IMG/VR virus record: IMGVR_UViG_3300011868_000001
Span: 189,748 to 253,747 of that record
Length of the DNA stretch: 64,000 bases
From: a virus
Lineage: Duplodnaviria; Caudoviricetes
Strand: one strand, 5' to 3'
Below the pieces are notes generated by a model. That model saw only the letters and a list, made by a program, of their open reading frames with translations, was not told the DNA's origin and did not search any database. A program made the translations under genes and the position numbers. Each line of letters begins with the position of its first letter. Within the stretch, counting starts at the first letter, position 1. This document shows, one piece after another, positions 14,699 to 29,831 of this stretch.

Positions 14699-17098
14699 AT
14701 GAGTACTGTACTTCCACAATACCCTTTCGATCCGACGGGGCTCGCGACGTCGAACAAGGTGACCGAGACTCAGGCGATTGAATCGCGTGGGATGTTCGAT
14801 CATTATTACATCATTCCCCGCAGCGGTCCGTTTTATGCGGAGACGGTAAGGCTACGGCTATACCCTGCCGGTGCAAATATCAATAACCCGGCGGGCGGCG
14901 AACCGCTCGAAGAAGGACTGCATTTTAACTTCGGGTATCATTTCGCCCATGCATCACATACCATTGGAAAGCCGGTATACGGGGCGATTTCTTTCTATGA
15001 CCGTCAGTTGACCGGTCAGCTGCGCATGGAGTACCAGACACTCGGTGGTGACTGGGTCCTCGACGACCAGAAAATGACCGAGCTGTTGGGTAACGTGGCG
15101 TACAACCCGCGTACCGCAACCTGGGAACAAGTGGTCGAGTTGCCGCATCAATTCCCGGTGGTTAACCACGACTTTAACATCGACGATTTCGTCGGTATGA
15201 GTGAAGTGGTTGATCAGCTGGAAGACATCACCGATGCGATCAATCAGAAGACTGCAGGTGGTATGGCCGATCACGTCAATGCCAAGAACAACCCGCACGA
15301 AGTCAGCAAGGATCAAGTCGGTCTGGGGTTGGTGGATAACTTCCCCACAGCAGCGCCTGCTGAGGCCACTGGCGGCACGGCCAACAACCGCTTCATGACG
15401 CCCCTGCGTACTAAGCAACTGATCGACGCTACCGCAACAGTCGCCCTGAACAATCACATGGGCGATACGACCAACCCCCACGGTGTCACTAAGACTCAAG
15501 TAGGGCTGGGTAACGTTCAGAACTATGCGGGGGCGACCCAGGCTGAAGCGGAAGCAGGGGCCAGTAACGCCCGTTACATGACTCCGCTGCGTACCCGCGA
15601 AGCCATTGAGGCCATTGTCGGGGTAGCATTCAACGCCCACGTCAACAACAAGAACAACCCGCATGGCGTGACCAAGGCGCAGGTCGGTCTGGGCAATGTG
15701 CCGAACATCGGTGTCGCCACGGATGCCATGGCATTGCAAGGCCAGTCGGATGCCGGGATCATCACCCCGCGTTTGTTGTCCATGGTGCTGAGCGAAACGG
15801 TTGGCAGTGGGGTCACTGAGCACATTGCTGACTCCAATAACCCACACGGTGTAACAAAAGCACAAGTGGGCCTGAGCAACGTTCAGAACTATGCAGTGGC
15901 TACCGAGGCCGTGGCACGCGATGCCACCTCTAATGCGCATTACATGACGCCGTTGGCTGTCCGTTATGCTGTCGCTGCACTGGTCGGGGAAGGCGGCGTT
16001 GGTGATCACATTACCAACCTCAACAACCCGCACCGAGTGACTGCTGCTCAGGTGGGTACGTACTCTGCTGAAGAACTCGATGCACTGCTCAACGACAAAC
16101 TCGACGACACTGCAGCGGCTGCCGATGCCTTGGCTGTATTTGGCATGTCGCAAGGCGAACTGGAAGGGTGGATCGGAGGTCTGCGGGCAGGCAACAGCGT
16201 ACTGTTCGATAACAAGACCTACGCTCAAGTCAAAGAAGATATCCTGGCGGGTAAGGCTGCTGATGCTGCTAAACTCGATGGACGTACCTACGCACAGATT
16301 GTTGCAGCCATTGGTGAAGCCGTTGATGGCGGCAATACGCAGCATAACGTGCCACCGGTAGGTCCGGTTGAAGACGCCAACGGTGACTTCGGCGATGCCC
16401 CTCAGCATTGGTTGAAGATCGGCAAGTTCCAACAGCCGCTGGATTATCAATACGGTGACATGACCCTATTGATCACTGGCGGGCGCGATGAAGACTCCGA
16501 GACTGAACGGCACCACACCATCTTGCTGGAACTGTCGACCACCAACGACTACCCGGTCGATGGCCTGAGCTTCACGCCGCTGCTGGTGCGCGCCCCTCGG
16601 GTTAAGCACCTGACTCCAGCAGAAGAGCCGATCCGGATCGGTTATGTGGTCAACCACGGTGATGCGATCCCACGTCCGTGGATCGATATCTACATCCAGA
16701 CCATCGGTCAACGTGCAGGTTGGACGGTAACGGAGCTGTCGAACAAGTTCTTCGTTCCTGAAGTGTTCGATCCGATCAATGAGGTCTCTGACCTGCTCTT
16801 GGTCGAACCTGCAGGCATCGTCTATCCGCCGGTCATCTCCGATGGCTCTGCTGAGATCATTGCGCTGCAGGCATTCTCCGAGCGCAAGGACAACCCGCAT
16901 CAGGTGACGAAAGCGCAGGTCGGCTTGGGCTCAGTCCCGAACTACCCAGCTGCAACTTCCGCCGAGGCACTGGCCGGGACAGCCACCAACCGTCTCATGA
17001 GTCCGGCCACCACCCAGGCCAGCGTCGACCAGGCCATCAACAGTCTGTGCGATCACCTGTCTGAAGTGGTCGACAATGCTCTACCGCTGTTTGCTTAA
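14699..17098 (+). CDS. Tail fibre protein (phiKZ gp145/146-like)
   Basis: N-terminal YPFDPTG..N anchor domain; six NPHxVTKAQVGL repeats; AATGGTATG motif at 14579-14587. Confidence 0.8.
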   Translation: MSTVLPQYPFDPTGLATSNKVTETQAIESRGMFDHYYIIPRSGPFYAETVRLRLYPAGANINNPAGGEPLEEGLHFNFGYHFAHASHTIGKPVYGAISFYDRQLTGQLRMEYQTLGGDWVLDDQKMTELLGNVAYNPRTATWEQVVELPHQFPVVNHDFNIDDFVGMSEVVDQLEDITDAINQKTAGGMADHVNAKNNPHEVSKDQVGLGLVDNFPTAAPAEATGGTANNRFMTPLRTKQLIDATATVALNNHMGDTTNPHGVTKTQVGLGNVQNYAGATQAEAEAGASNARYMTPLRTREAIEAIVGVAFNAHVNNKNNPHGVTKAQVGLGNVPNIGVATDAMALQGQSDAGIITPRLLSMVLSETVGSGVTEHIADSNNPHGVTKAQVGLSNVQNYAVATEAVARDATSNAHYMTPLAVRYAVAALVGEGGVGDHITNLNNPHRVTAAQVGTYSAEELDALLNDKLDDTAAAADALAVFGMSQGELEGWIGGLRAGNSVLFDNKTYAQVKEDILAGKAADAAKLDGRTYAQIVAAIGEAVDGGNTQHNVPPVGPVEDANGDFGDAPQHWLKIGKFQQPLDYQYGDMTLLITGGRDEDSETERHHTILLELSTTNDYPVDGLSFTPLLVRAPRVKHLTPAEEPIRIGYVVNHGDAIPRPWIDIYIQTIGQRAGWTVTELSNKFFVPEVFDPINEVSDLLLVEPAGIVYPPVISDGSAEIIALQAFSERKDNPHQVTKAQVGLGSVPNYPAATSAEALAGTATNRLMSPATTQASVDQAINSLCDHLSEVVDNALPLFA

Positions 17099-17168: not shown

Positions 17169-18743
17169 ATGAGTGTACCACCAATTATCCAGTACCCGCT
17201 CGATCTGTCGGGTACGTCGCCAACGAACCGAATCGTTGGTGAGCGTCGAGAAATCTCGACCAATGCAGAACGTGTGTTTGTCCCAAAGGCAGGTCCTTTC
17301 TACACCGAGTCGTTTGTAATCTACAACGATGAGACTGGCGAGCCGCTTCGGCCGGTAGACGACTACCTTTTGGTACAGCCGTTCGCCCAAGCATCGCTGC
17401 GCAGCGGTAAGGATGTTCAATCTGCCGTTGTTCTGAAGATGCAAGCCCCTGTTATCGTCCGCATGGACTACCGCGTTGTGGGTGGTGAGTACTCGTGGAA
17501 CCTGGGAGCGCTGGCTGACCTTATCGCGGAACTCAATCTCGATGAGCGCGCCGTTAAATGGGGATCGATCATTGGTCGTCCCACCATGTACCCGGCCGCA
17601 CCACACATCCATGACATCGGCGATACCTATGGGTGGGAATACGTGGTCTGGCAACTGGAGCGTGTCACTAACGCCATTCTGGTTGGTGACGAGGCGTCCC
17701 ACGAAGAACTGCGTCAACAGATGCTGTATCTGCGTGACCAGCTGCAGGCCAATATCGATGCAGTCGATGGCAAGGTTGACGAACATCTCAATGACTTCGA
17801 AAATCCACATCGCACAACGAAGGCGCAGGTCGGGCTCGGTTCGGTAGACAACTTCCCGACAGCCACTTCGGTCGAAGCCAACACCGGTACAGCCAACAAC
17901 CGCTTCATGACGCCGGCGACGACCACCACCTTGTCGACGCGCATCGCTCGTGAAGAGGTCAATGCCCACGAGGCGAAGAAGAACAACCCCCACGATGTCA
18001 CCAAAGCTCAGGTAGGGTTGGGTAATGTCGACAACTTCCTGACGGCTACTCAGGCACAGGGTGAATCGACCACGGTCAATGACAAGTTCATGACCCCGCT
18101 GCGCACCTACCAGGCCATCATGGTCCATGCCGGTACCTTGCTGAACGTGCACGTGAACAACAAGAACAACCCGCATGAGGTGACGAAAGCACAGGTCGGT
18201 CTGGGGCTGGTAGACAACTTCCAAACCGCGACCCGTACCGAGGCCATTGAAGGTACATCCAATGCACGCTTCATGACGCCGCTCAGGACCAAAGAAGCGA
18301 TCGACGCCATTGCCGGTAACCTGATTCAATCACACGTCTCGAACCTCAACAATCCGCACAAAGTCACCAAGGATCAAGTCGGTCTGGGTAATCTGCCGAA
18401 TGCCATCACGCGCAGCCGGACATTGAACTCTGACGCCCACCTGCTGACCGCCGGCGGTATGTTCGATCACGTGGCCTCGGGCGATCATGACAACCGTTAC
18501 GTGCGCTTGAACACCACCCAGAACACCAGTCTGCGGGTAGTGAACAATAAGCTTCAGTGCTATGTCAGTGGACAGTGGCGACAGATCTGGCCGGCGACCT
18601 GGACTAACTTTGCCGCAGAAAGGGCAAACGATCCGGTACTGGGTAACGACCAGCAAATCCAACTGCTGGTGGCCGGTGGTCGCCTATATGCAACGGTAGC
18701 TGGCGCGTGGCAGCAGGTCTGGCCTGCACTTTGGACAGACTAA
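17169..18743 (+). CDS. Tail fibre protein 2 (phiKZ gp145/146-like)
   Basis: N-terminal YPLDLSG..N domain paralogous to 14699; four NPHxVTKAQVGL repeats; duplicated C-terminal WxQxWPAxW motif. Confidence 0.8.
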   Translation: MSVPPIIQYPLDLSGTSPTNRIVGERREISTNAERVFVPKAGPFYTESFVIYNDETGEPLRPVDDYLLVQPFAQASLRSGKDVQSAVVLKMQAPVIVRMDYRVVGGEYSWNLGALADLIAELNLDERAVKWGSIIGRPTMYPAAPHIHDIGDTYGWEYVVWQLERVTNAILVGDEASHEELRQQMLYLRDQLQANIDAVDGKVDEHLNDFENPHRTTKAQVGLGSVDNFPTATSVEANTGTANNRFMTPATTTTLSTRIAREEVNAHEAKKNNPHDVTKAQVGLGNVDNFLTATQAQGESTTVNDKFMTPLRTYQAIMVHAGTLLNVHVNNKNNPHEVTKAQVGLGLVDNFQTATRTEAIEGTSNARFMTPLRTKEAIDAIAGNLIQSHVSNLNNPHKVTKDQVGLGNLPNAITRSRTLNSDAHLLTAGGMFDHVASGDHDNRYVRLNTTQNTSLRVVNNKLQCYVSGQWRQIWPATWTNFAAERANDPVLGNDQQIQLLVAGGRLYATVAGAWQQVWPALWTD

Positions 18744-18783: not shown

Positions 18784-19290
18784 ATGCTTAAGAAAATCGA
18801 TTTCCAGTTCCAAGGAATCACCGAAGAACTGCTGATGGTGGACCAGTTTCTGTCAAGCCCCCATCCCTATGAACAGGGGTTAGTCAAGTATGTGTTCAAC
18901 GATGCATCGTACGGGATCAACAGTCCTATGGAGTATCTTGAGCACAGTGACAAGCCAATCAAGGTCGAAGGCTATGAACGGTTGAATGCTGTTCTGTTTG
19001 GCGAGTGTCAACGCCTGGCGGCCTACTTCGGACACGCTGGGTATGTATCCTGTCACCTGTTCATCTCCCCTAAGGGATCAACGAGCTTCTCCATGCACAC
19101 CGATCCGGATGATGTGGTCGTCTATGTTGTCAAAGGTGGCAAAGAGTTCGAATCCATTGACCAGCTGGAATCTGTTAAAGCTGGTGATGTGTTATACATC
19201 CCGCGCAATCACCCACACCGTGCCATCAATACCGACAGTTCGCTTATGCTGAGCTTTGGGTTGGAGCTGTTTCTGGAGCAGAAGCTTTGA
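18784..19290 (+). CDS. JmjC/cupin-like Fe(II)/2OG oxygenase
   Basis: HxD motif (SFSMHTDPDDV) and GDVLYIPRNHPHRA with the distal His. Confidence 0.8.
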   Translation: MLKKIDFQFQGITEELLMVDQFLSSPHPYEQGLVKYVFNDASYGINSPMEYLEHSDKPIKVEGYERLNAVLFGECQRLAAYFGHAGYVSCHLFISPKGSTSFSMHTDPDDVVVYVVKGGKEFESIDQLESVKAGDVLYIPRNHPHRAINTDSSLMLSFGLELFLEQKL

Positions 19291-20327
19291 GCCTCAATAA
19301 AACCATTTACGTCAAAACCACAGGCACTTGTAACCTTGACTGTCAACACTGCTTTACCAACGGTAAGAACGGGGACAAGACCCAGTTTGACCCTGAGGTC
19401 ACAGCAGAGTGGGTTAAGGCGTTTATGGCCAAGTACCCAACCGATACTCACTACCACATGGAATTCCATGGCGGTGAGCCGTTCCTGGTGCCGTTGGAGA
19501 AGCTCAAGCGCTATGCCGATCAGTTTGTCGAGCACCCTCATGTGTCGATGTGTGCCAACAGCAACCTGACGTTCAAGTTGACAGATGCGCACATTGCGTT
19601 CATTCAGAAGTATTTCAACGGATACATTGGAACCAGTTGGGACCACTGGATTCGTTGGAGTAACGACAAGCAATTTCAGTTATGGAAACGTAATTTGGAA
19701 TTGTTGAAAGATAATGGTGTGACCATTGCACTTAAGGCGTCGGTAAGTCGCCAACTGCTGACGATGACACCTGACTGGTTCTTGGACCAGATGGAAGCCC
19801 TGGCAGTCGATGAGGTCTCACTGGAACGTCTGACCATGGACGGCAGTGCGCAATGTAACGTCGGTATCTTCCCGGACAATGAAGAGCAAGACAACTGGTA
19901 TCTAGCGCTGTATCAGCGCTATAAGGCTCGTCAAGGCCGCGTGCGCATCAAGACACTCGACATCATTGAAGACAAGCTTAAAACCAATCGGGTCAAGGTC
20001 GATACCAACTGCCGCAACTGCGAGCAGAATCTGGTGACCATCAACTCGGACGGTTCGCTGTCCGGTTGTCCAAATGCAGCAGCAGCACTGCATCATGCGA
20101 AGTTGGAAGATGGGGTCGATGCATTCCTCAGCTCCGATGGACTGATTCAAGAGATCACCTCAGAACTGACATGGGGTGACACCTGCCTTTCCTGCGATGT
20201 CTTTGACCTGTGTGGTGGCGATTGTCACCGCCTGCCGTGGCAGAATGGACGATGCGGTGGGTTGAAAAATACCCTGCGTCATCTGTCAGGCCGGAATACA
20301 CAATCCAATTTGATTTTGAAGGTGTGA
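19287..20327 (+). CDS. Radical SAM/SPASM protein 1
   Basis: CNLDCQHC, FHGGEP, C-terminal CRNC...GCP...CLSCDVFDLCGGDC. Confidence 0.9.
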   Translation: MSLNKTIYVKTTGTCNLDCQHCFTNGKNGDKTQFDPEVTAEWVKAFMAKYPTDTHYHMEFHGGEPFLVPLEKLKRYADQFVEHPHVSMCANSNLTFKLTDAHIAFIQKYFNGYIGTSWDHWIRWSNDKQFQLWKRNLELLKDNGVTIALKASVSRQLLTMTPDWFLDQMEALAVDEVSLERLTMDGSAQCNVGIFPDNEEQDNWYLALYQRYKARQGRVRIKTLDIIEDKLKTNRVKVDTNCRNCEQNLVTINSDGSLSGCPNAAAALHHAKLEDGVDAFLSSDGLIQEITSELTWGDTCLSCDVFDLCGGDCHRLPWQNGRCGGLKNTLRHLSGRNTQSNLILKV

Positions 20328-20328
20328 A

Positions 20329-20880
20329 ATGACCGAACAAATTACCCGTAACCGAATCGCGATGAATGCCAACAGCCGGATTCGCGATCGTTGCAACAGC
20401 GGTATCTCCTGGGGTACCAACAACTACCCGGCCAACTCTGATCCGGCCTGGTTCGGTGGCCCGACCAGCGGTCTGGCAGTATCCATGAGCCGCAATGACT
20501 TCTCCGGCGGTGAGCCGTCAGTATCGCAAGCGGTATCTGCCCTGCGTACATTCGCCAACCGCTTTGCTGCCATCCGCACCATCCGTATCCTGATCTACCG
20601 CAGCAAGTCGGGTTACTCCAGCGGTAACGGCAACATCCTTGAGTACGATGGTACTGCGGTAGCCCACTCGGCGTACTCGTCTGGTGCTCATGCCAATAGC
20701 GTTGCGCTGTCGGCGATGCGTGAAGGTGTGGAGATGGACCTGGACACGCTGAACAGTTCGCTGGACGAGCTGTGGAACGCCTACGTAGCCGGTGCCCGCA
20801 ACACTGTGCTCAACCGCGAACGTGTCATCTGCCATACCAGCTGTCACAGCAACTGTCACTGCGCCCGCGGGCGTCGTTGA
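20329..20880 (+). CDS. Gly/Ser/Asn-rich protein with C-terminal Cys/His repeat (candidate modification substrate)
   Basis: 183 aa ending CHTSCHSNCHCARGRR; codon usage resembles the capsid gene. The ORF is solid; the function is inferred. Confidence 0.75.
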   Translation: MTEQITRNRIAMNANSRIRDRCNSGISWGTNNYPANSDPAWFGGPTSGLAVSMSRNDFSGGEPSVSQAVSALRTFANRFAAIRTIRILIYRSKSGYSSGNGNILEYDGTAVAHSAYSSGAHANSVALSAMREGVEMDLDTLNSSLDELWNAYVAGARNTVLNRERVICHTSCHSNCHCARGRR

Positions 20881-20914: not shown

Positions 20915-21670
20915 ATGAGCGAACAACCCACCACCCCTGCGGTAATCCCCTGCACTGCTCCAATCGCGGTCAGTGACCTGAAGCGCAAGTTCACCGAAGA
21001 CGTTGTGTTTGTTATCGACGTCGATGCCAGTAAGTTAAAAGGTCGTGCTCTGCTGACGTACCTGTCGAACCTCAACACCAATATCCATCTGCAATTTGGT
21101 AGTGTCGAGGCGACCACCGAACTGCTGCGTGATTACATGGCCTCGACGTTGCTGATCAGCATCGCTGAATTGGAAGACCTTGCTATCAACCTGCTACTGG
21201 CAGCCACTGGTCGTGCGTACACCCTTCCGTTCGAACCAGCGTCCTTCATTGAAGAGAACGAGGCGCTGATCGAGACCTGGCTCAAGCGACTGGACTCACT
21301 TCCGGCGTTTGCGCTGTACTGCCACCCGGCGCACAAAGAGGCCGTGGAGCAGACCTACCCAGAAGACACGGACGAAAGCATGGCGGGGCTTAACTTCGTC
21401 AAGCTGATCGAGCATGAGTTGTTCCCGGTTCTGATGGCGGGCGTGCAGGAAAGTGATTACAACTGGAACCGCGTGCTGTTTAACGAGTACATCTTCGCTG
21501 GCGATAATCTGTTTAAGTTCTTTGCCAGCAAGAACAACCCGTACTTCATAGCACTGCTCGCCGATGAATGTCCGGAGGAGTTTGGCCGTGTTCTGCCTAT
21601 CATGCAGACCCTGGTGCATAAAACGACCCAATGTGTAAAGGAAATCGAACATGTATCACATCCGCAGTAA
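20915..21670 (+). CDS. Hypothetical protein (rSAM cluster)
   Basis: 251 aa from MSEQPTT; overlaps the next gene. Confidence 0.75.
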   Translation: MSEQPTTPAVIPCTAPIAVSDLKRKFTEDVVFVIDVDASKLKGRALLTYLSNLNTNIHLQFGSVEATTELLRDYMASTLLISIAELEDLAINLLLAATGRAYTLPFEPASFIEENEALIETWLKRLDSLPAFALYCHPAHKEAVEQTYPEDTDESMAGLNFVKLIEHELFPVLMAGVQESDYNWNRVLFNEYIFAGDNLFKFFASKNNPYFIALLADECPEEFGRVLPIMQTLVHKTTQCVKEIEHVSHPQ

Positions 21671-22706
21671 AGCCTACGTCGAGATCGATTCTCGCGTAAC
21701 GCGCGACAATCCCTATATCTCGTTCGGCAAGCACGTCGGCTACGAGTACGTCCCGGTGGCACACGAGACTGCTGCTCAACAACTCACTTACGCCCAGTCC
21801 CTCGATGACCTGAGCAGTGATGAATTCAAAGCCGCCATGAATGCAGCGTTCACCAGCAAGGAAAAGGTGTTCATCTTCGCCGATGGCAAAACCTACCTGC
21901 GTCTGTACGCCATGGTCGTCAAAGCGCTGCTTCCATCGGTGACTCTCGATGTGTTCCGTTGGATCTTCCTGTGCAAGAAGGCAACCTTCAACGTCTCCTT
22001 GCTGAACATCCGCAAGCCGGCGTCGAACATTCTGGATGAAGTCCAGATCAATGCCAAGACCATCGAAGCACTGTTCAAGCAAGAAGACCCGCATCAGCAG
22101 GCGATGAATGAACTCATGGCAGCGGCGCCCGATGAAGTTTCGCTGGAATGGCGTATCCTGCGTCTGCTGACCTGTGACCGGGTCGGGAAGCTGCCCAAGA
22201 CGCTGCGCAACATCCTGCGGCGTATCGCCCTAGCCAATACCCACGACGCCCTCGACGTCTGGGGTCGGATGATTGCCGATCCGGGCATGTGGGAGTTTGC
22301 TGGGTGTGACATGGACACCCTGATGAACGGCAACAGTGTCTTTGAAGGCACCCTGAAGTTCCATTACCTGAACAACCCGATGTTCCTGCAACCTGGTGTG
22401 TTCGAAAACGAACCGACCAAGGACTGGATTGTTGGTCTGCTCAAGGAACTGGTGCAGGTGCTGGAGTTCTGTGACGAAGGTCCGACCGCCGGGCGTACTC
22501 GTCTGATCCTCGAGCTGATCAAAGACGAGACCAACCTGCAAGACCCGGAAGCTCTCAAAGCACGGGTTGTGACCATGTTCAAAGGCGCCAAGCGTTTGGC
22601 CCTGCCGAATGCCGATTCTGGCAAGTACGATGAAAACCTCATCCGCTACGTATTGAACGAGGACGTCGAAGTCCTGCGTCAGTGCGTCAAAGGAGCGCAG
22701 TGGTAA
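21651..22706 (+). CDS. Hypothetical protein (rSAM cluster)
   Basis: 351-aa ORF with AAGGA RBS; TAATG coupling to the next gene. Confidence 0.78.
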   Translation: MYHIRSKAYVEIDSRVTRDNPYISFGKHVGYEYVPVAHETAAQQLTYAQSLDDLSSDEFKAAMNAAFTSKEKVFIFADGKTYLRLYAMVVKALLPSVTLDVFRWIFLCKKATFNVSLLNIRKPASNILDEVQINAKTIEALFKQEDPHQQAMNELMAAAPDEVSLEWRILRLLTCDRVGKLPKTLRNILRRIALANTHDALDVWGRMIADPGMWEFAGCDMDTLMNGNSVFEGTLKFHYLNNPMFLQPGVFENEPTKDWIVGLLKELVQVLEFCDEGPTAGRTRLILELIKDETNLQDPEALKARVVTMFKGAKRLALPNADSGKYDENLIRYVLNEDVEVLRQCVKGAQW

Positions 22707-23701
22707 TGGAACTGATCCCCGTAGTGAACATCCTCCAAGAGAAGAAGGGTAAGTGGAAAGAAGCTCATCTGATTCTGTTTGAGTACTGTAATCTACGGTG
22801 TTCTTTCTGCCATCAAGACCACGACTCCAAGGTGGGGTTTGACACCATCGCTGAAAAGGTCGAGACGCTCATTGCCAACACCGACCCACGGCAACCGTAC
22901 GTGGTGAACATGACCGGTGGTGAGCTGTTCTTGGACGAGTTCCCTGATGAGCTGTTCGAGCAGTACTACCAAGCAGGTAAACGTATCTTCGAACACTTCG
23001 ACGATGCCTTGCTGGTACTGGGAACCAACCTGGTCTATCATCGGGTGGAGCGGTTGATCAAGCTGGTCAATCGACTCTCCACTCATGGTCGGGTCCAGAT
23101 CGCCACGTCGTACGATCCAGCGGGTCGTTTTGATCGCGTCAGCCGGATGCTGTTCATACACAACCTGCAGCGCGTGAAGGAATACGTCAAGACCATCAAC
23201 GTGGTGATCACCAAGCAGAACATCGAGGCGTTCCTGAGTGAAGACGAAGGGTATGAAGTCGCCTGGATGTGCGAACACTTCGATGTGTACTTCGACCACT
23301 ACATCCCCAGTCAGATGTATGAATACATCCAGCCGGATGAAGACCTGATCAGTCAGCTGTACCTCAAACTCAATGAGCGCTATCCGAACTCCTATCCGAT
23401 CAAGGACTGGAAGAACAATGCGTTCAACGAGACCACCTGTCGCTCGACCAAGATCGTCAACAAAGACGGGATTGTCAGCACCTGTTGGTCCGAGGCCGGT
23501 AAGAACGCCATCTTAGATGAAGCCGAAGGCCTTAAAGCCAAGGACGAAGCTGAGATGCGGTTCGTGGAGAAATACAACTGCTTCGCTTGCGAGTACTATT
23601 CTCGCTGCGGGATGCGTTGCTTCCTCCATCACTCGTTCATTGACGACGGAAATGATGTCTGTCAGATCAAATTGATGTTCGATAAAGTGGTAGAGGCATA
23701 A
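22706..23701 (+). CDS. Radical SAM protein 2
   Basis: CNLRCSFC, MTGGELF, C-terminal CFACEYYSRCGMRC. Confidence 0.88.
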   Translation: MELIPVVNILQEKKGKWKEAHLILFEYCNLRCSFCHQDHDSKVGFDTIAEKVETLIANTDPRQPYVVNMTGGELFLDEFPDELFEQYYQAGKRIFEHFDDALLVLGTNLVYHRVERLIKLVNRLSTHGRVQIATSYDPAGRFDRVSRMLFIHNLQRVKEYVKTINVVITKQNIEAFLSEDEGYEVAWMCEHFDVYFDHYIPSQMYEYIQPDEDLISQLYLKLNERYPNSYPIKDWKNNAFNETTCRSTKIVNKDGIVSTCWSEAGKNAILDEAEGLKAKDEAEMRFVEKYNCFACEYYSRCGMRCFLHHSFIDDGNDVCQIKLMFDKVVEA

Positions 23702-23871: not shown

Positions 23872-24048
23872 ATGAATGTACAAGAATTTCCCTTGACGCC
23901 TGAAGGCTATCAGCAGGCCATGCAATGGATGAAGGACGAAGGACTCGATCCAGTGGAACATGCTAACCGAGAACTGTCCACTGACGGTTACACCATTGTC
24001 AATCTGGTGAACCACCTGCGCCAACGTAAGGTCGCACAGACTGCCTAG
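23872..24048 (+). CDS. Small hypothetical protein (58 aa; not in the ORF track)
   Basis: MNVQEFPLTPEGYQQAMQWMKDEG...RKVAQTA; GAGAGG RBS. Confidence 0.65.
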   Translation: MNVQEFPLTPEGYQQAMQWMKDEGLDPVEHANRELSTDGYTIVNLVNHLRQRKVAQTA

Positions 24049-24061
24049 AAGGAATGTGTAA

Positions 24062-25150
24062 GTGGACTTGATCCTGAAGCCAACCCAGAAATGTAACTTT
24101 AAGTGCACCTTCTGCTCGAGCACCTACTTGAGCGAAGACAATCGGGAAATTGTCGATCTGAGTCAGGTTGCACTGTTCATCAAGCGTTTCCCTGAGACGC
24201 GTACGGTGATTGTCAATGGGGGCGATCCGTTGATGATGCCGCCAGAGTACTACTGGGACCTGATCGACATTCTCGATCAGTTGGGTTCTCAGGCCAGCAT
24301 CTCCTTTACCACCAACCTCTGGCCGTTCTATAAGAAACCTGAATTGTGGGAAGAGCTGTTCAAACACCCCAGAATTGGCGTGACCACCTCGTTCCAATAC
24401 GGTGAGGGGCGGCTTAAAGGTGACGGCACACCGTTGACCGAGGCTGAGTTCATTGCCATGAGTGATCTGTTTCTGGAACGGATCGGCTATCGTCCTGATT
24501 TTATCGCAGTGATCGACAAGGACAATGAACACACTGTCCTTGATACGGTCCGGTTGGCTAAACGCCTAGGGGTGGAAGCCAAGGTCAACTATGCGGTGGC
24601 CTCAGGACCTGTGGTGGTCAACAAAGGCATCACCATGGGACATGCTGAAAGCATGTACACCCAAGCTGACATGTATAAAGCCTACATCGAGATTTACGAT
24701 GCAGGTCTCATGCAGTGGGAGTTCAACACCAAGCAGATGGTCAAGCGCATCAAGACGCAGAACACCATCTGCCCATTGAGCCGGGACTGCGACAGCGGGA
24801 TTCGAGCCTTGCAACCTGGTGGCGGCTATTACTCCTGCGGGGCCTTTGGCGATGACCTGAAGTATCCCATCGACTTTAAGAAAGAGATGGCCGGTGAATT
24901 CTTCCGTCCCTTGAGCAATCAAGAAGAGCTGTGGTCGATGAAGGAGGCCTGTAACGAGTGTCCGATGTTCCTGATCTGCAATGGCTGTCGTAAGACCGTG
25001 ACCGACACCAAGCGGTTAGGTCTGGCTGAGCATCACTGCAAGACCATGAAGAGCATTGCACCGCGGATCATCGAACTCAACGGGATGCAGGACTACCTGG
25101 TCCCCACCCCTTACGTGGACGAGTCTGTCCAGATCATCGCCCGAGGCTAA
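24062..25150 (+). CDS. Radical SAM/SPASM protein 3
   Basis: CNFKCTFC, VNGGDPL, C-terminal CPLSRDC...SCG...CNECPMFLICNGC. Confidence 0.9.
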   Translation: MDLILKPTQKCNFKCTFCSSTYLSEDNREIVDLSQVALFIKRFPETRTVIVNGGDPLMMPPEYYWDLIDILDQLGSQASISFTTNLWPFYKKPELWEELFKHPRIGVTTSFQYGEGRLKGDGTPLTEAEFIAMSDLFLERIGYRPDFIAVIDKDNEHTVLDTVRLAKRLGVEAKVNYAVASGPVVVNKGITMGHAESMYTQADMYKAYIEIYDAGLMQWEFNTKQMVKRIKTQNTICPLSRDCDSGIRALQPGGGYYSCGAFGDDLKYPIDFKKEMAGEFFRPLSNQEELWSMKEACNECPMFLICNGCRKTVTDTKRLGLAEHHCKTMKSIAPRIIELNGMQDYLVPTPYVDESVQIIARG

Positions 25151-25152
25151 GC

Positions 25153-25395
25153 ATGGCGTATATCGATCCTTTTGAGCGCAGTCCGGTAGCCGACTCCCTG
25201 TCGGCTGAATCCGCCAAGCTCGATGAGCAGCTCAACGCAGTCTTCCAACGTGAAGCCGAGTTCTTTGAGCGTCAACTGGCCCATCGTAACATGCGTCTAA
25301 ACTCACGGGGAGTGGCTCAATTGGAAATGAACCTACGGGATTTTCTGAACAAGGCCATTGCTGACATCGAAAAGGACCTAGACGATGCTGGCTAA
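25153..25395 (+). CDS. Hypothetical helical protein
   Basis: 80-aa ORF with GAGG RBS between rSAM genes. Confidence 0.65.
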   Translation: MAYIDPFERSPVADSLSAESAKLDEQLNAVFQREAEFFERQLAHRNMRLNSRGVAQLEMNLRDFLNKAIADIEKDLDDAG

Positions 25396-25440: not shown

Positions 25441-26445
25441 GTGGGCCGACCGAAAATCAACCTCAGCCTGAACCCCACTTATTATTGCAACCTGCGCTGT
25501 GAGTTCTGCTACCTCACGCCAGAGCAGCTGGGCGATAAGACCCGTCTGGAGCTGGATAAGTTCGAAGAAGTGCTGCTCGATATCTTGCAGCATTACGATG
25601 TCGGTCATGTCGACCTGTATGGCGGTGAAGTCCTCTTGTTGCCCCCGGAATACCTGCGGGGTCTCAAAGACATCCTGCACACCTACGGGATCGATGATAT
25701 TGTTCTGGTGACCAACCTCACCCTGACCAATGAGATCACCGAGGACTTGGACTTCGATCTGTCAGTGTCGTATGACTTCGGGGCACGGGAGATGCATGAG
25801 CGGGTGTTCAACAACCTGCTGGCATTGCCCAGACCGTACACCATCCTGACCCTGGCCAGCCGGAAGTTTCTCGATACGGTGAGTGTGGATGAATTCGTCC
25901 AGACCATGAACCTGTTGAGTGGGGCCAAGGACGTCGAGATCAAGCCGTACAGCGCGAATCAGGCTAACACGCATGCAGTGTACTACGATGAGTTCGAACG
26001 CTTCGTATGGGCGGTTATAGAGCATCCTGACAGGCAGTTCTACTTCGAGAATGAACGCCAGATCAAAGAAGCGGTTGAGGGCCAACGTAACGCCTTCAGC
26101 GATGACCACCTGTACATCACTCCGACTGGCCAATTGGCCGTTTTGGAGTTCGATGCCAATGACAATGAGTTCTTCCTCCCGGTTGATGGAGTGGAAGGCT
26201 ATCTTGCGTGGTGTGCAAAAGAAAAGCAGGCCGTGGCCCAGAACGGGCATTGCGGGACCTGTACCTACATGGGACATTGCCTCTCCGAACATTTGCGGGA
26301 GGTGAAAGACTTGTCCCATTCCTGTAACGGTTTTAAGGGGTTACTTGACCTATGGACAACCCACACCTCGTCCAACACCGACAACGCCTGGAGATCACGC
26401 TTGATCTATTCCGAGGCTGTGCCAACCACTGCGCCGGATGCATGA
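25441..26445 (+). CDS. Radical SAM protein 4
   Basis: CNLRCEFC, LYGGEV, C-terminal CGTCTYMGHC. Confidence 0.88.
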   Translation: MGRPKINLSLNPTYYCNLRCEFCYLTPEQLGDKTRLELDKFEEVLLDILQHYDVGHVDLYGGEVLLLPPEYLRGLKDILHTYGIDDIVLVTNLTLTNEITEDLDFDLSVSYDFGAREMHERVFNNLLALPRPYTILTLASRKFLDTVSVDEFVQTMNLLSGAKDVEIKPYSANQANTHAVYYDEFERFVWAVIEHPDRQFYFENERQIKEAVEGQRNAFSDDHLYITPTGQLAVLEFDANDNEFFLPVDGVEGYLAWCAKEKQAVAQNGHCGTCTYMGHCLSEHLREVKDLSHSCNGFKGLLDLWTTHTSSNTDNAWRSRLIYSEAVPTTAPDA

Positions 26446-27380
26446 TCGACCGCACCATCGGTGGCGATGTCGATGATCTGCCAGAACTCAAAGCCCTGAT
26501 CGAGGAGATGACCGCCGCCGGTTATGTTGCTTTCGATCTGGGCGTTGGACCAACCGACTACATGACGGCCGATAACAAGGACGAAGTCATGGTCCATCCG
26601 GTTTTCCAAGCCATGGCACAGTTGTTTCATCAGGTGACCTTCAATGCTGCATTCCTGGAAAAGGACCTGACGAAATACACCCGCATGTGTCAGGAGATCG
26701 ATCAGTGCATCCCAGGCAAACCGATTCGTTTCCTGATCCCGGCTGCTCCCAGTTTCTTCAAGACCAATAAGTTCAGTGACATGATCAACATGAAACTGAA
26801 CCATGTCAAAGACAGTCTGCACGATGCCTTCCTCAACGAGGCGGGCTTTGTGGTAAACTGTACCAAAGACACGGTCGACGATGAATTTGAAGAGATGCTG
26901 GTCAAAGGGTTCGATGTCGAGTTTCCGGTCGATAAGGATGACATCCTGAACATCCCCTATGGTCGGGCACCGGTCAAAGACCTTCAGGTGGCGCAGCAGA
27001 TTCAGCGCATGAGTTATCGCATCAGTCACTATTACAAATTGCTCAATGGTACCGACGAGCGCCGGAAGAATCCTGATCTGTGCCTCAATACCGGGACCAT
27101 GACCAATCTGCTGTATACCGATGGCAAACTGTACTGGGTACCCTTCCTCAAGGACGATTGTCCGTTCCTTGAAGATGCGTTTACCGTGCCCAAGCCCTGG
27201 ACTATGGATAACCTGCTGGCGACGCGTCAGAAGGCGCTGGATGCCTCTCTGGAGTACCTCAAAGACACCCCCTGCATGCAGTGTCCTTACATCTCCAGTT
27301 GTGCTGAGAAAGGCATTACCAGCATCATGCAATTTATGGGTATCAAGGACTGTCTGGTAGGGCTTGACTATGCACAATGA
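26352..27380 (+). CDS. Divergent radical-SAM-like protein 5
   Basis: CANHCAGC near the N-terminus, GPTD instead of GGEP, C-terminal CMQCPYISSC. Confidence 0.7.
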   Translation: MDNPHLVQHRQRLEITLDLFRGCANHCAGCMIDRTIGGDVDDLPELKALIEEMTAAGYVAFDLGVGPTDYMTADNKDEVMVHPVFQAMAQLFHQVTFNAAFLEKDLTKYTRMCQEIDQCIPGKPIRFLIPAAPSFFKTNKFSDMINMKLNHVKDSLHDAFLNEAGFVVNCTKDTVDDEFEEMLVKGFDVEFPVDKDDILNIPYGRAPVKDLQVAQQIQRMSYRISHYYKLLNGTDERRKNPDLCLNTGTMTNLLYTDGKLYWVPFLKDDCPFLEDAFTVPKPWTMDNLLATRQKALDASLEYLKDTPCMQCPYISSCAEKGITSIMQFMGIKDCLVGLDYAQ

Positions 27381-28413
27381 ACGCGTCTCTCAAACCTTTA
27401 ACCTTGGGCTTGAAGTGCTCAAGGGGTGTGGGTACAGTTGTTCGGGCTGTACGGTCGACAAGAACTTTGCCGACTTCGATGTACCAGAAGATGATGCCCG
27501 CGCTATCCTTGGTCTGCTCGCCGATCTTAAAGCGCAAGACTGGCGAATGCTCGAGCTTAAGATCGGGCCGACAGACATCACCAGCTCCGACAATGGCTTT
27601 GCCGTGTTGCAGCACCCGGTGATCAAAGAGATCGCCTCGTACTACAAGGTGCTGACCTTAAACGCTGCCATGCTCCATGACCGTAACCTGCCTGAGTTGG
27701 CAGAGCTGGTCGACGAGTTGATGCCGGGCAAGTACGTTAACATCGGCACCCCGTTTACCTTGAAGAACGTGGCCAATGAAAAGTACATGGCGATGATGAA
27801 AGAACGCTTGGCGTACTTCCAGAGTCTGTTGAAGAAAGCGTCTTTCACTCGCCTGTATGCCACGATAAACATTGAGGAAGAGAACCTTAAGCAGTTCAAC
27901 CCTGAGTCGTTCAGTCTGATTCGTAACTATGACTTCGGCTCTGGGATCGATAAGGTGATTGAGTTTCCGTTTGTCAATGCTCGCCAAGGGTTTGACAACC
28001 TGCTCATTGCCGAACGCTTCAAGCGCGACATCAAGCAGTTTGCTGATTTTGCCAAGACGCGTATCAACACCCATGAGTTCGTGCCGTTGATCCCCGGTGT
28101 CAAAGAAGGCTATGAGTACACGTACCGTACCGGCAAACTGTACTCGACCATTGTGCTGGTTGAGAACCTGACGCTGTACAAAGACAAGTATGAGTTGGCA
28201 AGGCCATGGACGGGCGAGCGGCTACTCAAGCACCGAGAAGACGCCTACATCAACAACCTGGTCAAGTACAGCGAACATCCCCAATGTGGGACGTGTTGTT
28301 TCTTGGATCATTGCGCCCGGTGCGACGTCCAACATCTGATGGAAGAGACGGGCAGTGACACCTGCCTGATCGAGATGCATAACCGCTGGGATCTGGCTCA
28401 TGTAGAGCACTGA
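27370..28413 (+). CDS. Divergent radical-SAM-like protein 6
   Basis: CGYSCSGC, GPTD, C-terminal CGTCCFLDHC; apparent paralog of 26352. Confidence 0.7.
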   Translation: MHNERVSQTFNLGLEVLKGCGYSCSGCTVDKNFADFDVPEDDARAILGLLADLKAQDWRMLELKIGPTDITSSDNGFAVLQHPVIKEIASYYKVLTLNAAMLHDRNLPELAELVDELMPGKYVNIGTPFTLKNVANEKYMAMMKERLAYFQSLLKKASFTRLYATINIEEENLKQFNPESFSLIRNYDFGSGIDKVIEFPFVNARQGFDNLLIAERFKRDIKQFADFAKTRINTHEFVPLIPGVKEGYEYTYRTGKLYSTIVLVENLTLYKDKYELARPWTGERLLKHREDAYINNLVKYSEHPQCGTCCFLDHCARCDVQHLMEETGSDTCLIEMHNRWDLAHVEH

Positions 28414-28426
28414 TGAGGAACCGTCA

Positions 28427-28861
28427 ATGGACTCGTTATACACTATCGTCGACAACGTGGCAATTCCTGAGTGGCTTGTCGATGCTGCAATGTGCGAACC
28501 GAATAAAGGGTCCATTGACACGCCCGAGATTTGGAGCTTTGTAGAGAAACAGCTCCTGCCGCTGGTCATGCGTCAGACTCAGGCACAACCGACCCTTTAT
28601 GTATCGTCGAATCACGTGCACATCAGTGCAGCGGGCCTGACCCCGCACGATCATCTGCCCAACGCATTTACGTCAGTGCTTTATCTGGTAGATGCCGAAG
28701 GACGGTTGATCATCGACCCCGATGGGATCAATGAACGGGTCAAACCGGCGGCTGGTCGATTCGTCATTTTCAAAGGTGAAACCATTCATGCGGTGGAGAA
28801 ATCGCCGCAGAATGAATTGCGTATTTCGCTGGTGAGCAACTATGAATACCCTTCCGTATAA
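28427..28861 (+). CDS. Fe(II)/2OG-type oxygenase
   Basis: PHDH..FTSVLYL, GRFVIFKGETIHAV, RISLVSN. Confidence 0.72.
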   Translation: MDSLYTIVDNVAIPEWLVDAAMCEPNKGSIDTPEIWSFVEKQLLPLVMRQTQAQPTLYVSSNHVHISAAGLTPHDHLPNAFTSVLYLVDAEGRLIIDPDGINERVKPAAGRFVIFKGETIHAVEKSPQNELRISLVSNYEYPSV

Positions 28862-29273
28862 GGCCTTCCAACGACTCTATGACGAGCTGGTGCAAGAACA
28901 CAGCGACGCATTTGAGTTAATGGAGTTTGTCATTGATGATGAACTCGTCAACAACGCCATGAAGTATTTCGAGGCCGCGACCTTTCCGCTGATCTATCCG
29001 GCCAAGAGCTATGCAGTGGCGATCATCTATGCCCACAAGCTCAGTGAGATTTATGGTCTGGATATCCACACGGTCCTCGATGACAAGGACCTGTTCCTTG
29101 GCCAAGACCCGTACTTTGTCCCGTACAGTGAAGACCCGGCGACGTACGAGGCCATCCTTCAGCGCTTAAAGCACAAGCCCAACTGGCTGGAATCGGGGTG
29201 GGCTCCGAAAAGCGTTCAATACTGCTTGCTCGAATGCACCGAGGCAGGCATCCAATCATTGACGGAGGTGTAA
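28842..29273 (+). CDS. Hypothetical protein (rSAM cluster)
   Basis: 143-aa acidic ORF overlapping the upstream gene. Confidence 0.72.
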   Translation: MNTLPYKAFQRLYDELVQEHSDAFELMEFVIDDELVNNAMKYFEAATFPLIYPAKSYAVAIIYAHKLSEIYGLDIHTVLDDKDLFLGQDPYFVPYSEDPATYEAILQRLKHKPNWLESGWAPKSVQYCLLECTEAGIQSLTEV

Positions 29274-29831
29274 ATGGACACGCACTTGTTGTGGGCGACG
29301 CCGGTGGCGCGGATCAATGTGGCTGATCAGTTCGACATGGCGGCCTGGGCTGATGAAGTCTTTGCCATGTACACCATGACCAATGGCGAAGACGACCGGC
29401 AGCGGTTCATCGACCCGGATATCTTCCCCGTGATCCTGAAGATGCGTGATGAAGTCATCACCCCGGCGGTCAATGCCTTCTGCAAGGAACACTTCGGACA
29501 AGACATGGAGAAATTCTATGTCGAGACCAATGGCAAGTGGATCGTTGAAGGCGAAGGCCTCTACGCCCATCTGCATCCTGGCAGCGTGCTTTCGGCTATC
29601 TGCTATCCAGGTGACTCAGCCAATGGGTTGAACATGTTCGACCCCAGGCTCAATGCCATGCGAGGCTACCCGAAACGGATGCGTAATCATCACTTTGCCA
29701 ACTTCCGTATCAGCCCTAAGCAGGGGGATGTCTGGATCTTCCCGAGCTACGCGCAGCACAGTGTCTCGCACGTGACCGAGGAAGTCCGGCTGTCGCTGCT
29801 GCACGAATACTACATGACCGATAACCTGTAA
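29274..29831 (+). CDS. Fe(II)/2OG-type oxygenase (TIGR02466-like)
   Basis: AHLHPGSVLSAICY, FDPR, GDVWIFPSYAQHSV, RLSL. Confidence 0.78.
   Translation: MDTHLLWATPVARINVADQFDMAAWADEVFAMYTMTNGEDDRQRFIDPDIFPVILKMRDEVITPAVNAFCKEHFGQDMEKFYVETNGKWIVEGEGLYAHLHPGSVLSAICYPGDSANGLNMFDPRLNAMRGYPKRMRNHHFANFRISPKQGDVWIFPSYAQHSVSHVTEEVRLSLLHEYYMTDNL

Follow-up and report, generated by a model that had tools for sequence, protein, structure and literature searches.

We analyzed a stretch of 64,000 nucleotides (here called the window) from a tailed virus (Duplodnaviria; Caudoviricetes), comprising positions 189,748 to 253,747 of the IMG/VR record IMGVR_UViG_3300011868_000001. The virus is a giant phage and a relative of Pseudomonas phage pPa_SNUABM_DT01. 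Two tail-fiber genes in the window are followed by an island of genes for putative radical S-adenosylmethionine (rSAM) enzymes and Fe(II) oxygenases, all on the plus strand. One open reading frame (ORF) of this island (20329 to 20880, plus strand) encodes a protein of 183 amino acids that ends in a periodic array of Cys and His residues (i.e., the tail protein; C terminus, VICHTSCHSNCHCARGRR, closing with ...NRERVICHTSCHSNCHCARGRR before the stop codon at 20878 to 20880; C-terminal peptide, VICHTSCHSNCHCAR). It directly follows the gene for a radical SAM/SPASM enzyme (rSAM1; 19287 to 20327, plus strand), which carries the cluster cysteines and a Pfam Radical_SAM match (PF04055).

The body of the tail protein (residues 1 to 167; 20329 to 20829, plus strand) is predicted to be an alpha/beta domain and includes a conserved GISWGTNNYP loop (residues 25 to 34). 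Gly, Ser, Asn, and Ala together make up 42% of the residues of the protein. The C-terminal tail (20830 to 20880, plus strand), i.e., CHTS-CHSN-CHCA-RGRR plus the stop codon, is a conserved cassette and the proposed maturation site. Its Cys168/His169, Cys172/His173, and Cys176/His177 pairs recur with a period of exactly 4 residues (codons at 20830 to 20865), its fourth Cys (Cys178) is not conserved among relatives, and the protein terminates in RGRR. The TGA stop codon of rSAM1 (20325 to 20327) is separated by 1 nucleotide from the ATG of the tail gene (20329), with a Shine-Dalgarno-like GAAGGTG just 5' of that ATG; the arrangement is typical of translational coupling. The first-pass annotation, made from the sequence alone, had described the 4-residue Cys/His period followed by RGRR, the body rich in Gly, Ser, Asn, and Ala, and the 1-nucleotide spacing to the rSAM gene, and all of these held when the ORFs were translated.

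A word-indexed search recovered 66 relatives of the tail protein, of which 0 were annotated, and a profile search of 1.84 billion representatives recovered 676 clusters (i.e., clusters at 50% identity) with E values of ≤1e-3. Model scans matched no Pfam or NCBIfam family, and PHROG 35144 matched only the C-terminal half of the protein (E = 4.6e-5). On the basis of these searches, the family is large, unannotated, and phage borne. In an alignment of 45 sequences (to 29% identity), C168, H169, C172, H173, C176, H177, R180, R182, R183, and A110 were invariant, and S171, G181, and the GISWGT loop were nearly so. Exactly three CH units were present in 192 of 209 family proteins, and 188 of the 209 ended exactly in CHxxCHxxCHxxRxRR. 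Within these 188 tails, position 4 was Ser in 174, position 8 was Ser or Asn in 182, position 12 was Ser, Ala, or Asn in all 188, and the first Cys was preceded by Val or Ile in 175. The pattern C-H-x-[ST]-C-H-x-x-C-H, for which a search had initially been suggested, is better written (C-H-x-S/N)3-R-x-R-R, with Ser/Asn conserved like Cys and His. The form that best describes the tails, right at the C-terminal end, is V-(C-H-x-S)(C-H-x-S/N)(C-H-x-S/A/N)-R-x-R-R.

The expected number of CHxxCHxxCH strings over all six reading frames of the window was 2e-4, against one found, and the tail protein is the sole protein with CHxxCH or with RxRR before the stop in the whole 253,747-bp genome. Since the Cys, His, and Arg residues are invariant in the 45 aligned relatives and the full tail recurs throughout most of the family, the motif is no chance feature. 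Among 71 distinct DNA tails, TGT/TGC and CAT/CAC were used about evenly, Ser codons were of both the AGY and the TCN kind, and Arg codons were of both the AGR and the CGN kind. This mixture of synonymous codons shows that the constraint is on the peptide rather than on the DNA or RNA.

The same gene was identified in isolated phages. In pPa_SNUABM_DT01, gp065 has 44% identity to the tail protein, ends in CHTSCHTSCHSARGRR, and sits in the same 16-gene block after two fiber genes. The rSAM1/tail pair is also present in phages RSL2 and Atu_ph07, whose homologues, reached via rSAM1, end in CHSSCHTSCHGSRGRR (RSL2 ORF068) and CHSSCHASCHNSRSRR (Atu_ph07 gp170); a tblastn search of the phage collection with the distant member P0062 gave no match. 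Homologues of rSAM1 occur as well in RSF1, FLC6/FLC8, SURPRISE13, RsoM3USA, and Phosso.

We compared gene order among loci composed of 80 IMG/VR loci retrieved with the family profile and of distant metagenome members, with ORFs annotated by means of the island proteins of the window; some loci are near-duplicates, and the number of independent observations is therefore lower than the locus count. A homologue of rSAM1 preceded the tail gene in every locus with upstream sequence (about 84 loci, to 25% identity) and was the immediate neighbor in all but one, in which rSAM2 is inserted (L073). The same placement of rSAM1 was seen in the isolated phages pPa_SNUABM_DT01, RSL2, and Atu_ph07 and in the variant loci. 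The rSAM1 and tail genes overlap in many other loci, and orf4 came directly next wherever downstream sequence was available. In about 90 loci, to 25% identity and usually behind tail-fiber genes, the order is cupin, rSAM1, tail protein, orf4, (orf5), rSAM2, rSAM3, rSAM4, ... 143-amino-acid ORF, 2-oxoglutarate (2OG) oxygenase. The cupin gene lies directly before rSAM1 in nearly all loci with an RxRR tail end, and the gene before the cupin is of the tail-fiber type in the window and in distant loci. The linkage to an rSAM gene proposed in the first-pass annotation, which would have been undermined had homologues mostly lacked rSAM neighbors, was thus seen in the gene order of every locus examined.

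The sequence of rSAM1 places it near enzymes that act on peptides or proteins. Its CxxxCxxC motif (C15-x3-C19-x2-C22) and GGEP (residues 62 to 65) were invariant in 41 aligned sequences, as was the full SPASM pattern of seven or eight Cys residues (C245-x10-G256-x4-C261, C300-x2-C303-x5-C309-x3-C313, and C323; also C242), and the SPASM model TIGR04085 scored 26.7 bits against a cutoff of 27. The best NCBIfam matches (i.e., FxsB, PapB, YhhB, anSME, AmcB, GrrM, DynA, and DarE) were all far below their cutoffs, and several of the best models aligned end to end. The closest solved structures were 8VPO, anSME, CteB, and ChlB. These matches, by family and by structure alike, are all SPASM enzymes that modify peptides or proteins; rSAM1 is accordingly a new member of this protein-modifying group, with a chemistry that homology does not make readable.

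Evidence for the location of the tail protein comes from Agrobacterium phage Atu_ph07, whose virion proteome, obtained by electrospray ionization-tandem mass spectrometry, includes gp170 at 31.89 kDa with 8 unique peptides and 35% coverage (PMC6102473 Table S5). The computed mass of the translated gp170 (P0213; L087:10044-10934) equals the table value at 31.89 kDa, and the numbering is secure because the masses of gp170, gp176, and gp177 match the published table (PMC6102473). The C-terminal peptide of gp170 ends in ...CHSSCHASCHNSR. The proteins gp165, gp168, and gp171 (rSAMs), gp169 (orf4), and gp172 (cupin) are absent from the virion list (PMC6102473). The occurrence of gp170 in purified particles is in line with the virion role that had been suggested for the tail protein, as judged from the proteome of one distant homologue. 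On the gel, gp170 was detected in slices 1 to 9 and was most abundant in slice 1, and slices 7 to 13 hold the peaks of the other 22 listed proteins of 28 to 36 kDa that had at least 3 peptides (PMC6102473 Table S5). Thus, after treatment with sodium dodecyl sulfate (SDS) at 95°C, the apparent size of gp170 is about threefold its mass or higher. The high-mass species could be disulfide linked, an SDS-stable trimer, or a nonreducible adduct; the published Atu_ph07 loading buffer names no reductant (PMC6102473).

AlphaFold2, run with the 45-sequence alignment, modeled the body (residues 1 to 167) as an alpha/beta domain with a mean predicted local distance difference test (pLDDT) score of 89.4 and a predicted template modeling score of 0.81. 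Tail residues 170 to 183 had a pLDDT of about 52 and were unstructured in the model, with a short helix placed at residues 171 to 177. These values agree with the earlier suggestion of a folded protein with a flexible C-terminal end. Searches of the body against the Protein Data Bank (PDB) found no related solved fold (best Foldseek E value, 0.03; best Z score in an exhaustive VIA-align search, 4.9), a profile search of the family against PDB sequences gave no match, and the ESM Atlas gave no usable lead for the fold. Matches to the body among predicted viral structures were limited to family members and a few uncharacterized phage proteins. The body is thus predicted to have a fold unseen among solved structures, and the last 16 residues are predicted to be a flexible tail that, being modeled with low confidence and exposed on a confident body, would be accessible.

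Given that the tail is nearly unchanged in hundreds of phages and always follows the same radical SAM gene, an undescribed enzyme pathway probably modifies it. With modest confidence, we propose that the tail protein is a virion protein, probably associated with fibers, whose tail is matured by the neighboring enzymes. This proposal is supported by the linkage to rSAM1, the coupled gene layout, the SPASM type of the enzyme, the conservation of the tail and its exposure in the model, the homologue in virions, the position after tail-fiber genes, variants with fiber-type domains, multiplied CH units, or an exchanged first oxygenase (see below), and the precedent of HxsA. From these observations, we infer the modification of the tail, the enzymes responsible, the chemistry, the trimeric state, and the place in the particle as follows. 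The tail protein would be a particle component, probably trimeric and associated with the tail fiber or baseplate. Late in infection, its tail would be the substrate of the cotranslated rSAM1 and probably also of further rSAMs and Fe(II) oxygenases of the 16-gene island. The enzyme rSAM1 may abstract hydrogen from C-alpha or C-beta at the Ser/Asn/His positions, after which a Cys sulfur or a His ring would form thioether- or cyclophane-type cross-links; alternatively, it may oxidize a Cys in a C-x-x-[S/A]-R context. The conserved recurrence of Ser/Asn with a spacing of four is in keeping with a role as acceptor (i.e., for a thioether from the adjoining Cys or for a His-to-C-beta cyclophane on H-x-S/N). 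Ribosomal oxygenases hydroxylate His or Arg, as the JmjC-like cupin could, and the cupin and 2OG oxygenases of the island might hydroxylate His, Arg, or neighboring residues. The product would be a compact, covalently stapled knob, possibly metal binding or linked between chains, that enters the virion while the enzymes are left behind. More tentatively, the pathway may be dedicated to cross-linking the tip of a virion protein, perhaps with a metal or reactive center, and the matured (CHxS)3-RxRR knob may be needed for fiber assembly, host recognition, or envelope penetration.

Several variants of the family bear on this proposal. In P0162 (L081:7962-8909; 315 amino acids), the body and its four CH units are joined through a GDSPGTGDG linker to a Peptidase_S74 domain at the C terminus (E = 1.5e-11). 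Peptidase_S74 is an intramolecular chaperone that trimerizes phage fibers and spikes and then cleaves itself. Self-cleavage of P0162 would leave a C terminus just past the CH units, near that of a subfamily (P0137, P0140, P0169, and P0187) that ends naturally at (CHxS)4-CHGDGPGxGGGV. In this GDGPG-tail subfamily, an oxygenase matching PF13640 (2OG-FeII_Oxy_3), which is the prolyl-hydroxylase-like group, replaces the cupin before rSAM1 in 4 of the 4 loci with upstream sequence. The first oxygenase and the stretch that follows the CH units vary together, which suggests that this stretch is where the oxygenase acts. The loci with PF13640 in place of the cupin (L088, L091, L094, and L081) have only two radical SAM genes, and the minimal island comprises an oxygenase, rSAM1, the tail protein, orf4, orf5, an rSAM, and a 2OG oxygenase. 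Another variant, P0160, has an N-terminal Gly_rich_2 domain. P0070 (L020:7992-8675; 227 amino acids) carries 13 CH dipeptides (CHTSCHSSCHSNVPVCHSSCHSNVP...CHAARGRR) in an otherwise normal island, and this multiplication may resemble a multicore precursor.

Several considerations weigh against maturation of the tail by the island enzymes. The modification has been observed nowhere, and the single available proteome is silent on the C-terminal peptide. The height of gp170 on the gel could come from disulfides, in view of the lack of a listed reductant, or from an SDS-stable trimer. As far as gene order goes, the island is inherited as a block, and adjacency cannot separate a substrate from another component; many of the loci are close relatives and are not independent. 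Pfam and NCBIfam reported no RiPP (a peptide made by the ribosome and modified after translation) recognition element (RRE; PqqD-like) for any island protein, with the radical SAM core of rSAM1 starting from approximately residue 10, and the same scans recognized no protease in the island. The covariation with the oxygenase is probably one evolutionary event, and a strict rule joining the cupin to RxRR fails in one locus, since P0124, with a tail lacking RxRR, keeps the cupin. The evidence for a trimer stems from one fused variant rather than from the window protein. Finally, Cys and His residues at positions i and i+4 could simply bind Zn or Fe.

This last point leads to the best-surviving alternative, that the tail is an unmodified metal site in which the nine Cys and nine His residues of a trimer chelate Zn or Fe, while the island acts on the fibers, on orf4/orf5, or on a small molecule. 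Invariant Cys and His residues are classic metal ligands, and metal ions are held on the three-fold axis in T4 gp37/gp12 and in the spike tips of P2 and phi92. A metal site would also be compatible with the homologue in virions and with the variant carrying a trimerization chaperone, and the short helix at residues 171 to 177 in the AlphaFold2 model would align three Cys residues on one face. However, it would leave unexplained the constant coupling directly after a SPASM-type protein-modifying enzyme, the conservation of Ser/Asn and of the terminal RxRR to the same degree as the ligands, and the position of the tail at or near a free C terminus, even in the Peptidase_S74 variant. From the sequences, a plain metal site would not obviously need the conserved Ser/Asn positions. 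We regard an unmodified metal site as unlikely, although metal binding and modification of the tail are not mutually exclusive.

A second alternative, which seems to us very unlikely, is a long-leader precursor in the style of pyrroloquinoline quinone or mycofactocin, with the body as a recognition domain and the tail cut off to yield a cofactor, metallophore, or signal. The core at the extreme C terminus (as in MftA), the presence of more than one rSAM gene and oxygenase gene, which cofactor pathways share, and the lineage with multiplied core units are all consistent with it. On the other hand, Pfam and NCBIfam scans recognized neither a protease nor a transporter in the island, the body of the Atu_ph07 homologue is found in virions at 35% coverage, and the body has invariant motifs of its own, is conserved, and in variants is joined to fiber-type domains. 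More improbable still is an accessory role, in which the tail protein donates Fe or Fe-S or provides a scaffold for the six rSAMs and three oxygenases: many Fe-S clusters and Fe(II) sites have to be filled in the enzymes of the island, and metallochaperones commonly have Cys/His-rich C-terminal tails, but such tails usually vary in length (here, three units in nearly all family members), the homologue goes into virions and the enzymes do not, and variants are fused to fiber-type domains. Both the cleaved-off cofactor and the Fe donor fit the virion data poorly. Heme c attachment (CxxxCH) was dropped for a cytoplasmic phage protein with no signal peptide.

We compared the proposed maturation with known systems. 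In the HXS antiphage defense system, the rSAM enzymes HxsB and HxsC mature the HxS-repeat protein HxsA, with +8 Da on an S-H-R-S-S unit (PMC13128918). The likeness lies in a full-size protein with tandem His-x-Ser units rich in basic residues and coencoded rSAMs (PMC13128918). However, HxsA is bacterial, exported to the periplasm, equipped with a domain that binds peptidoglycan, and built on a period of 3 without Cys, while the protein described here is phage encoded, has a period of 4 with an invariant Cys before each His at its extreme C terminus, and has a homologue in virions. The HXS models scored far below their cutoffs against rSAM1 and covered only the N-terminal core (TIGR03978, 27.5 bits, cutoff of 370; TIGR03977, 27.5 bits, cutoff of 268). 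The first-pass annotation had called periodic Cys/His-Xaa-Ser motifs typical cores of such chemistry; that description is loose, in that the nearest documented case, HxsA, has a period of 3 and no Cys, although its His-x-Ser repeats are indeed matured by rSAM enzymes (PMC13128918).

The domain plan of rSAM1 and its end-to-end alignment are shared with the maturases of ranthipeptides/SCIFF peptides (PapB and CteB) and of triceptides (FxsB, YhhB, GrrM, and AmcB). For rSAM1, the substrates would be repeats, either Cys rich or of the form aromatic-x-(Ser/Asn), with their gene beside that of the enzyme. Triceptide precursors have aromatic-x-x units, and H-x-S/N units occur three times in the tail; FxsB, YhhB, AmcB, and GrrM were among the best matches but far below cutoffs. 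The differences from these RiPP maturases are that rSAM1 scored about 49 bits against cutoffs of 340 to 445, that no RRE domain or leader peptidase was found, that the "leader" here is a 167-residue folded virion domain, and that the rSAM paralogues number up to six, with three oxygenases in addition. As in sulfatase maturation by anSME, a SPASM enzyme would act on a whole protein, and in the third unit, C-H-x-[S/A]-R, Cys and Arg are spaced as in C-x-P/A-x-R, with Ser/Ala at position +3. Nevertheless, position +2 is G/S/C/N instead of Pro/Ala, the protein has no sulfatase fold, and TIGR03942 scored 48 bits against a cutoff of 349. In the QhpC/QhpD system, the structural subunit QhpC is kept in its assembly and carries several Cys thioethers made by the SPASM enzyme QhpD. 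The QhpD model TIGR03906 matched rSAM1 weakly (E = 4.6e-6); the sequences are unrelated, the acceptors in QhpC are Asp/Glu, and QhpC is a subunit of a bacterial periplasmic enzyme. Short periodic metal-ligand motifs are also found in trimeric phage adsorption organelles (e.g., His-x-His in T4 gp37/gp12, and P2 gpV), but those His-x-His motifs lie inside beta-structure, without Cys and without enzyme genes. Spikes and fibers with Peptidase_S74 resemble the family in that P0162 ends in this domain, while the window protein lacks it and ends in RGRR. By enzyme scores and motif, the system would thus fall outside HXS, sulfatase maturation, and the named RiPP classes.

Genome papers on giant phages have recorded, without explanation, radical SAM clusters of four to eight genes inside the structural modules (PMC8541153, PMC12390700, PMC8066314, and PMC11898562); these clusters have been linked to DNA repair or host metabolism (PMC8541153) and called "highly unusual" (PMC12390700). 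A search of the literature linking RiPPs, radical SAM enzymes, and giant phages found no published description of the system. The tail family provides a concrete candidate substrate for these clusters, and it spans hundreds of phage lineages, with hosts in Pseudomonas, Ralstonia, Burkholderia, Agrobacterium, Sinorhizobium, and many uncultured groups. If the tail is modified, the substrates of radical SAM/SPASM enzymes would gain a large new class, with what would be (as far as the literature was searched) the first structural protein of a phage to be matured by a radical SAM enzyme and a phage-side counterpart of the bacterial HXS defense protein. Maturation of the tail would also explain why many giant phages carry "highly unusual" rSAM clusters within their structural modules. 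The signature CHxSCHx[SN]CH near a C terminus makes the family searchable.

The remaining genes of the region are, as noted above, on the plus strand. Tail-fiber gene 1 (14699 to 17098) has no Pfam match and is assigned as a fiber gene from the NNPH...VTKAQVGLG repeats that it shares with gene 2 and from its conserved place before gene 2 in related loci; tail-fiber gene 2 (17169 to 18743) matches PHROG tail and virion structural families (phrog_2163; E = 2e-131). The island is headed by a small cupin/JmjC-like Fe(II) oxygenase (18784 to 19290; Pfam JmjC_2, 41.5 bits; Cupin_2, 38.8 bits). Downstream of the tail gene lie orf4, a conserved protein of 251 amino acids (20915 to 21670; phrog_20767; E = 6.5e-42), and orf5, a conserved protein of 351 amino acids (21651 to 22706) that was detected by phmmer in 36 loci and is also present in the minimal islands L088 and L094. 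The AlphaFold2 model of orf4 has a pLDDT of 94, and no PDB fold match was found for it by structure searches or by a profile search against PDB sequences. orf5 had no family or PDB profile match and no detectable relatives outside these islands; the possibility that it is a diverged rSAM was rejected, as hhalign found it unrelated to rSAM1. As parts of the minimal core that is conserved, orf4 and orf5 are candidate factors for presenting the substrate or for assembly.

Five further radical-SAM-type genes follow (22682 to 23701, 24062 to 25150, 25441 to 26445, 26352 to 27380, and 27364 to 28413). Three of them match Pfam Radical_SAM, and PHROG 1802 matches these three as well as rSAM1. The last two (26352 to 28413) had no Pfam or NCBIfam match; each has about 58 ORF matches across 85 loci, in closer relatives, and both are absent from many distant islands, which have only rSAM1 to rSAM4. 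Small ORFs of 58 amino acids (23872 to 24048) and 80 amino acids (25153 to 25395) lie between the rSAM genes. They were considered unlikely to be true precursors, being outside the core and found in only 8 and 2 of the 85 loci, respectively. The island closes with a 2OG-Fe(II)-oxygenase-like gene (28427 to 28861; PF13640 and PF13759 below threshold), a conserved ORF of 143 amino acids (28842 to 29273) that recurs at the island end in most loci, and a second 2OG-Fe(II)-oxygenase-like gene (29274 to 29831; PF13759, 47.4 bits); both oxygenase-like genes are found at the island end in most loci.

The Ralstonia phages RP12 and RP31, which are relatives of RSL2, have a differently organized radical SAM cluster (i.e., a 537-amino-acid rSAM, a 360-amino-acid "arylsulfatase regulator," a MoaA-like protein, and MgoB; PMC5468394 supplementary tables), in which no obvious counterpart of the Cys-His tail was seen (PMC5468394). 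One locus (L005) is on a contig of 241,743 bp (JAHLJO010000090.1) in an assembly labeled Streptomyces sp. CHB9.2 (GCA_024105335.1). This contig holds the complete fiber/rSAM island seen in the present group of Pseudomonas-type giant phages and is likely to be a phage genome coassembled with the bacterium rather than a source of a Streptomyces gene.

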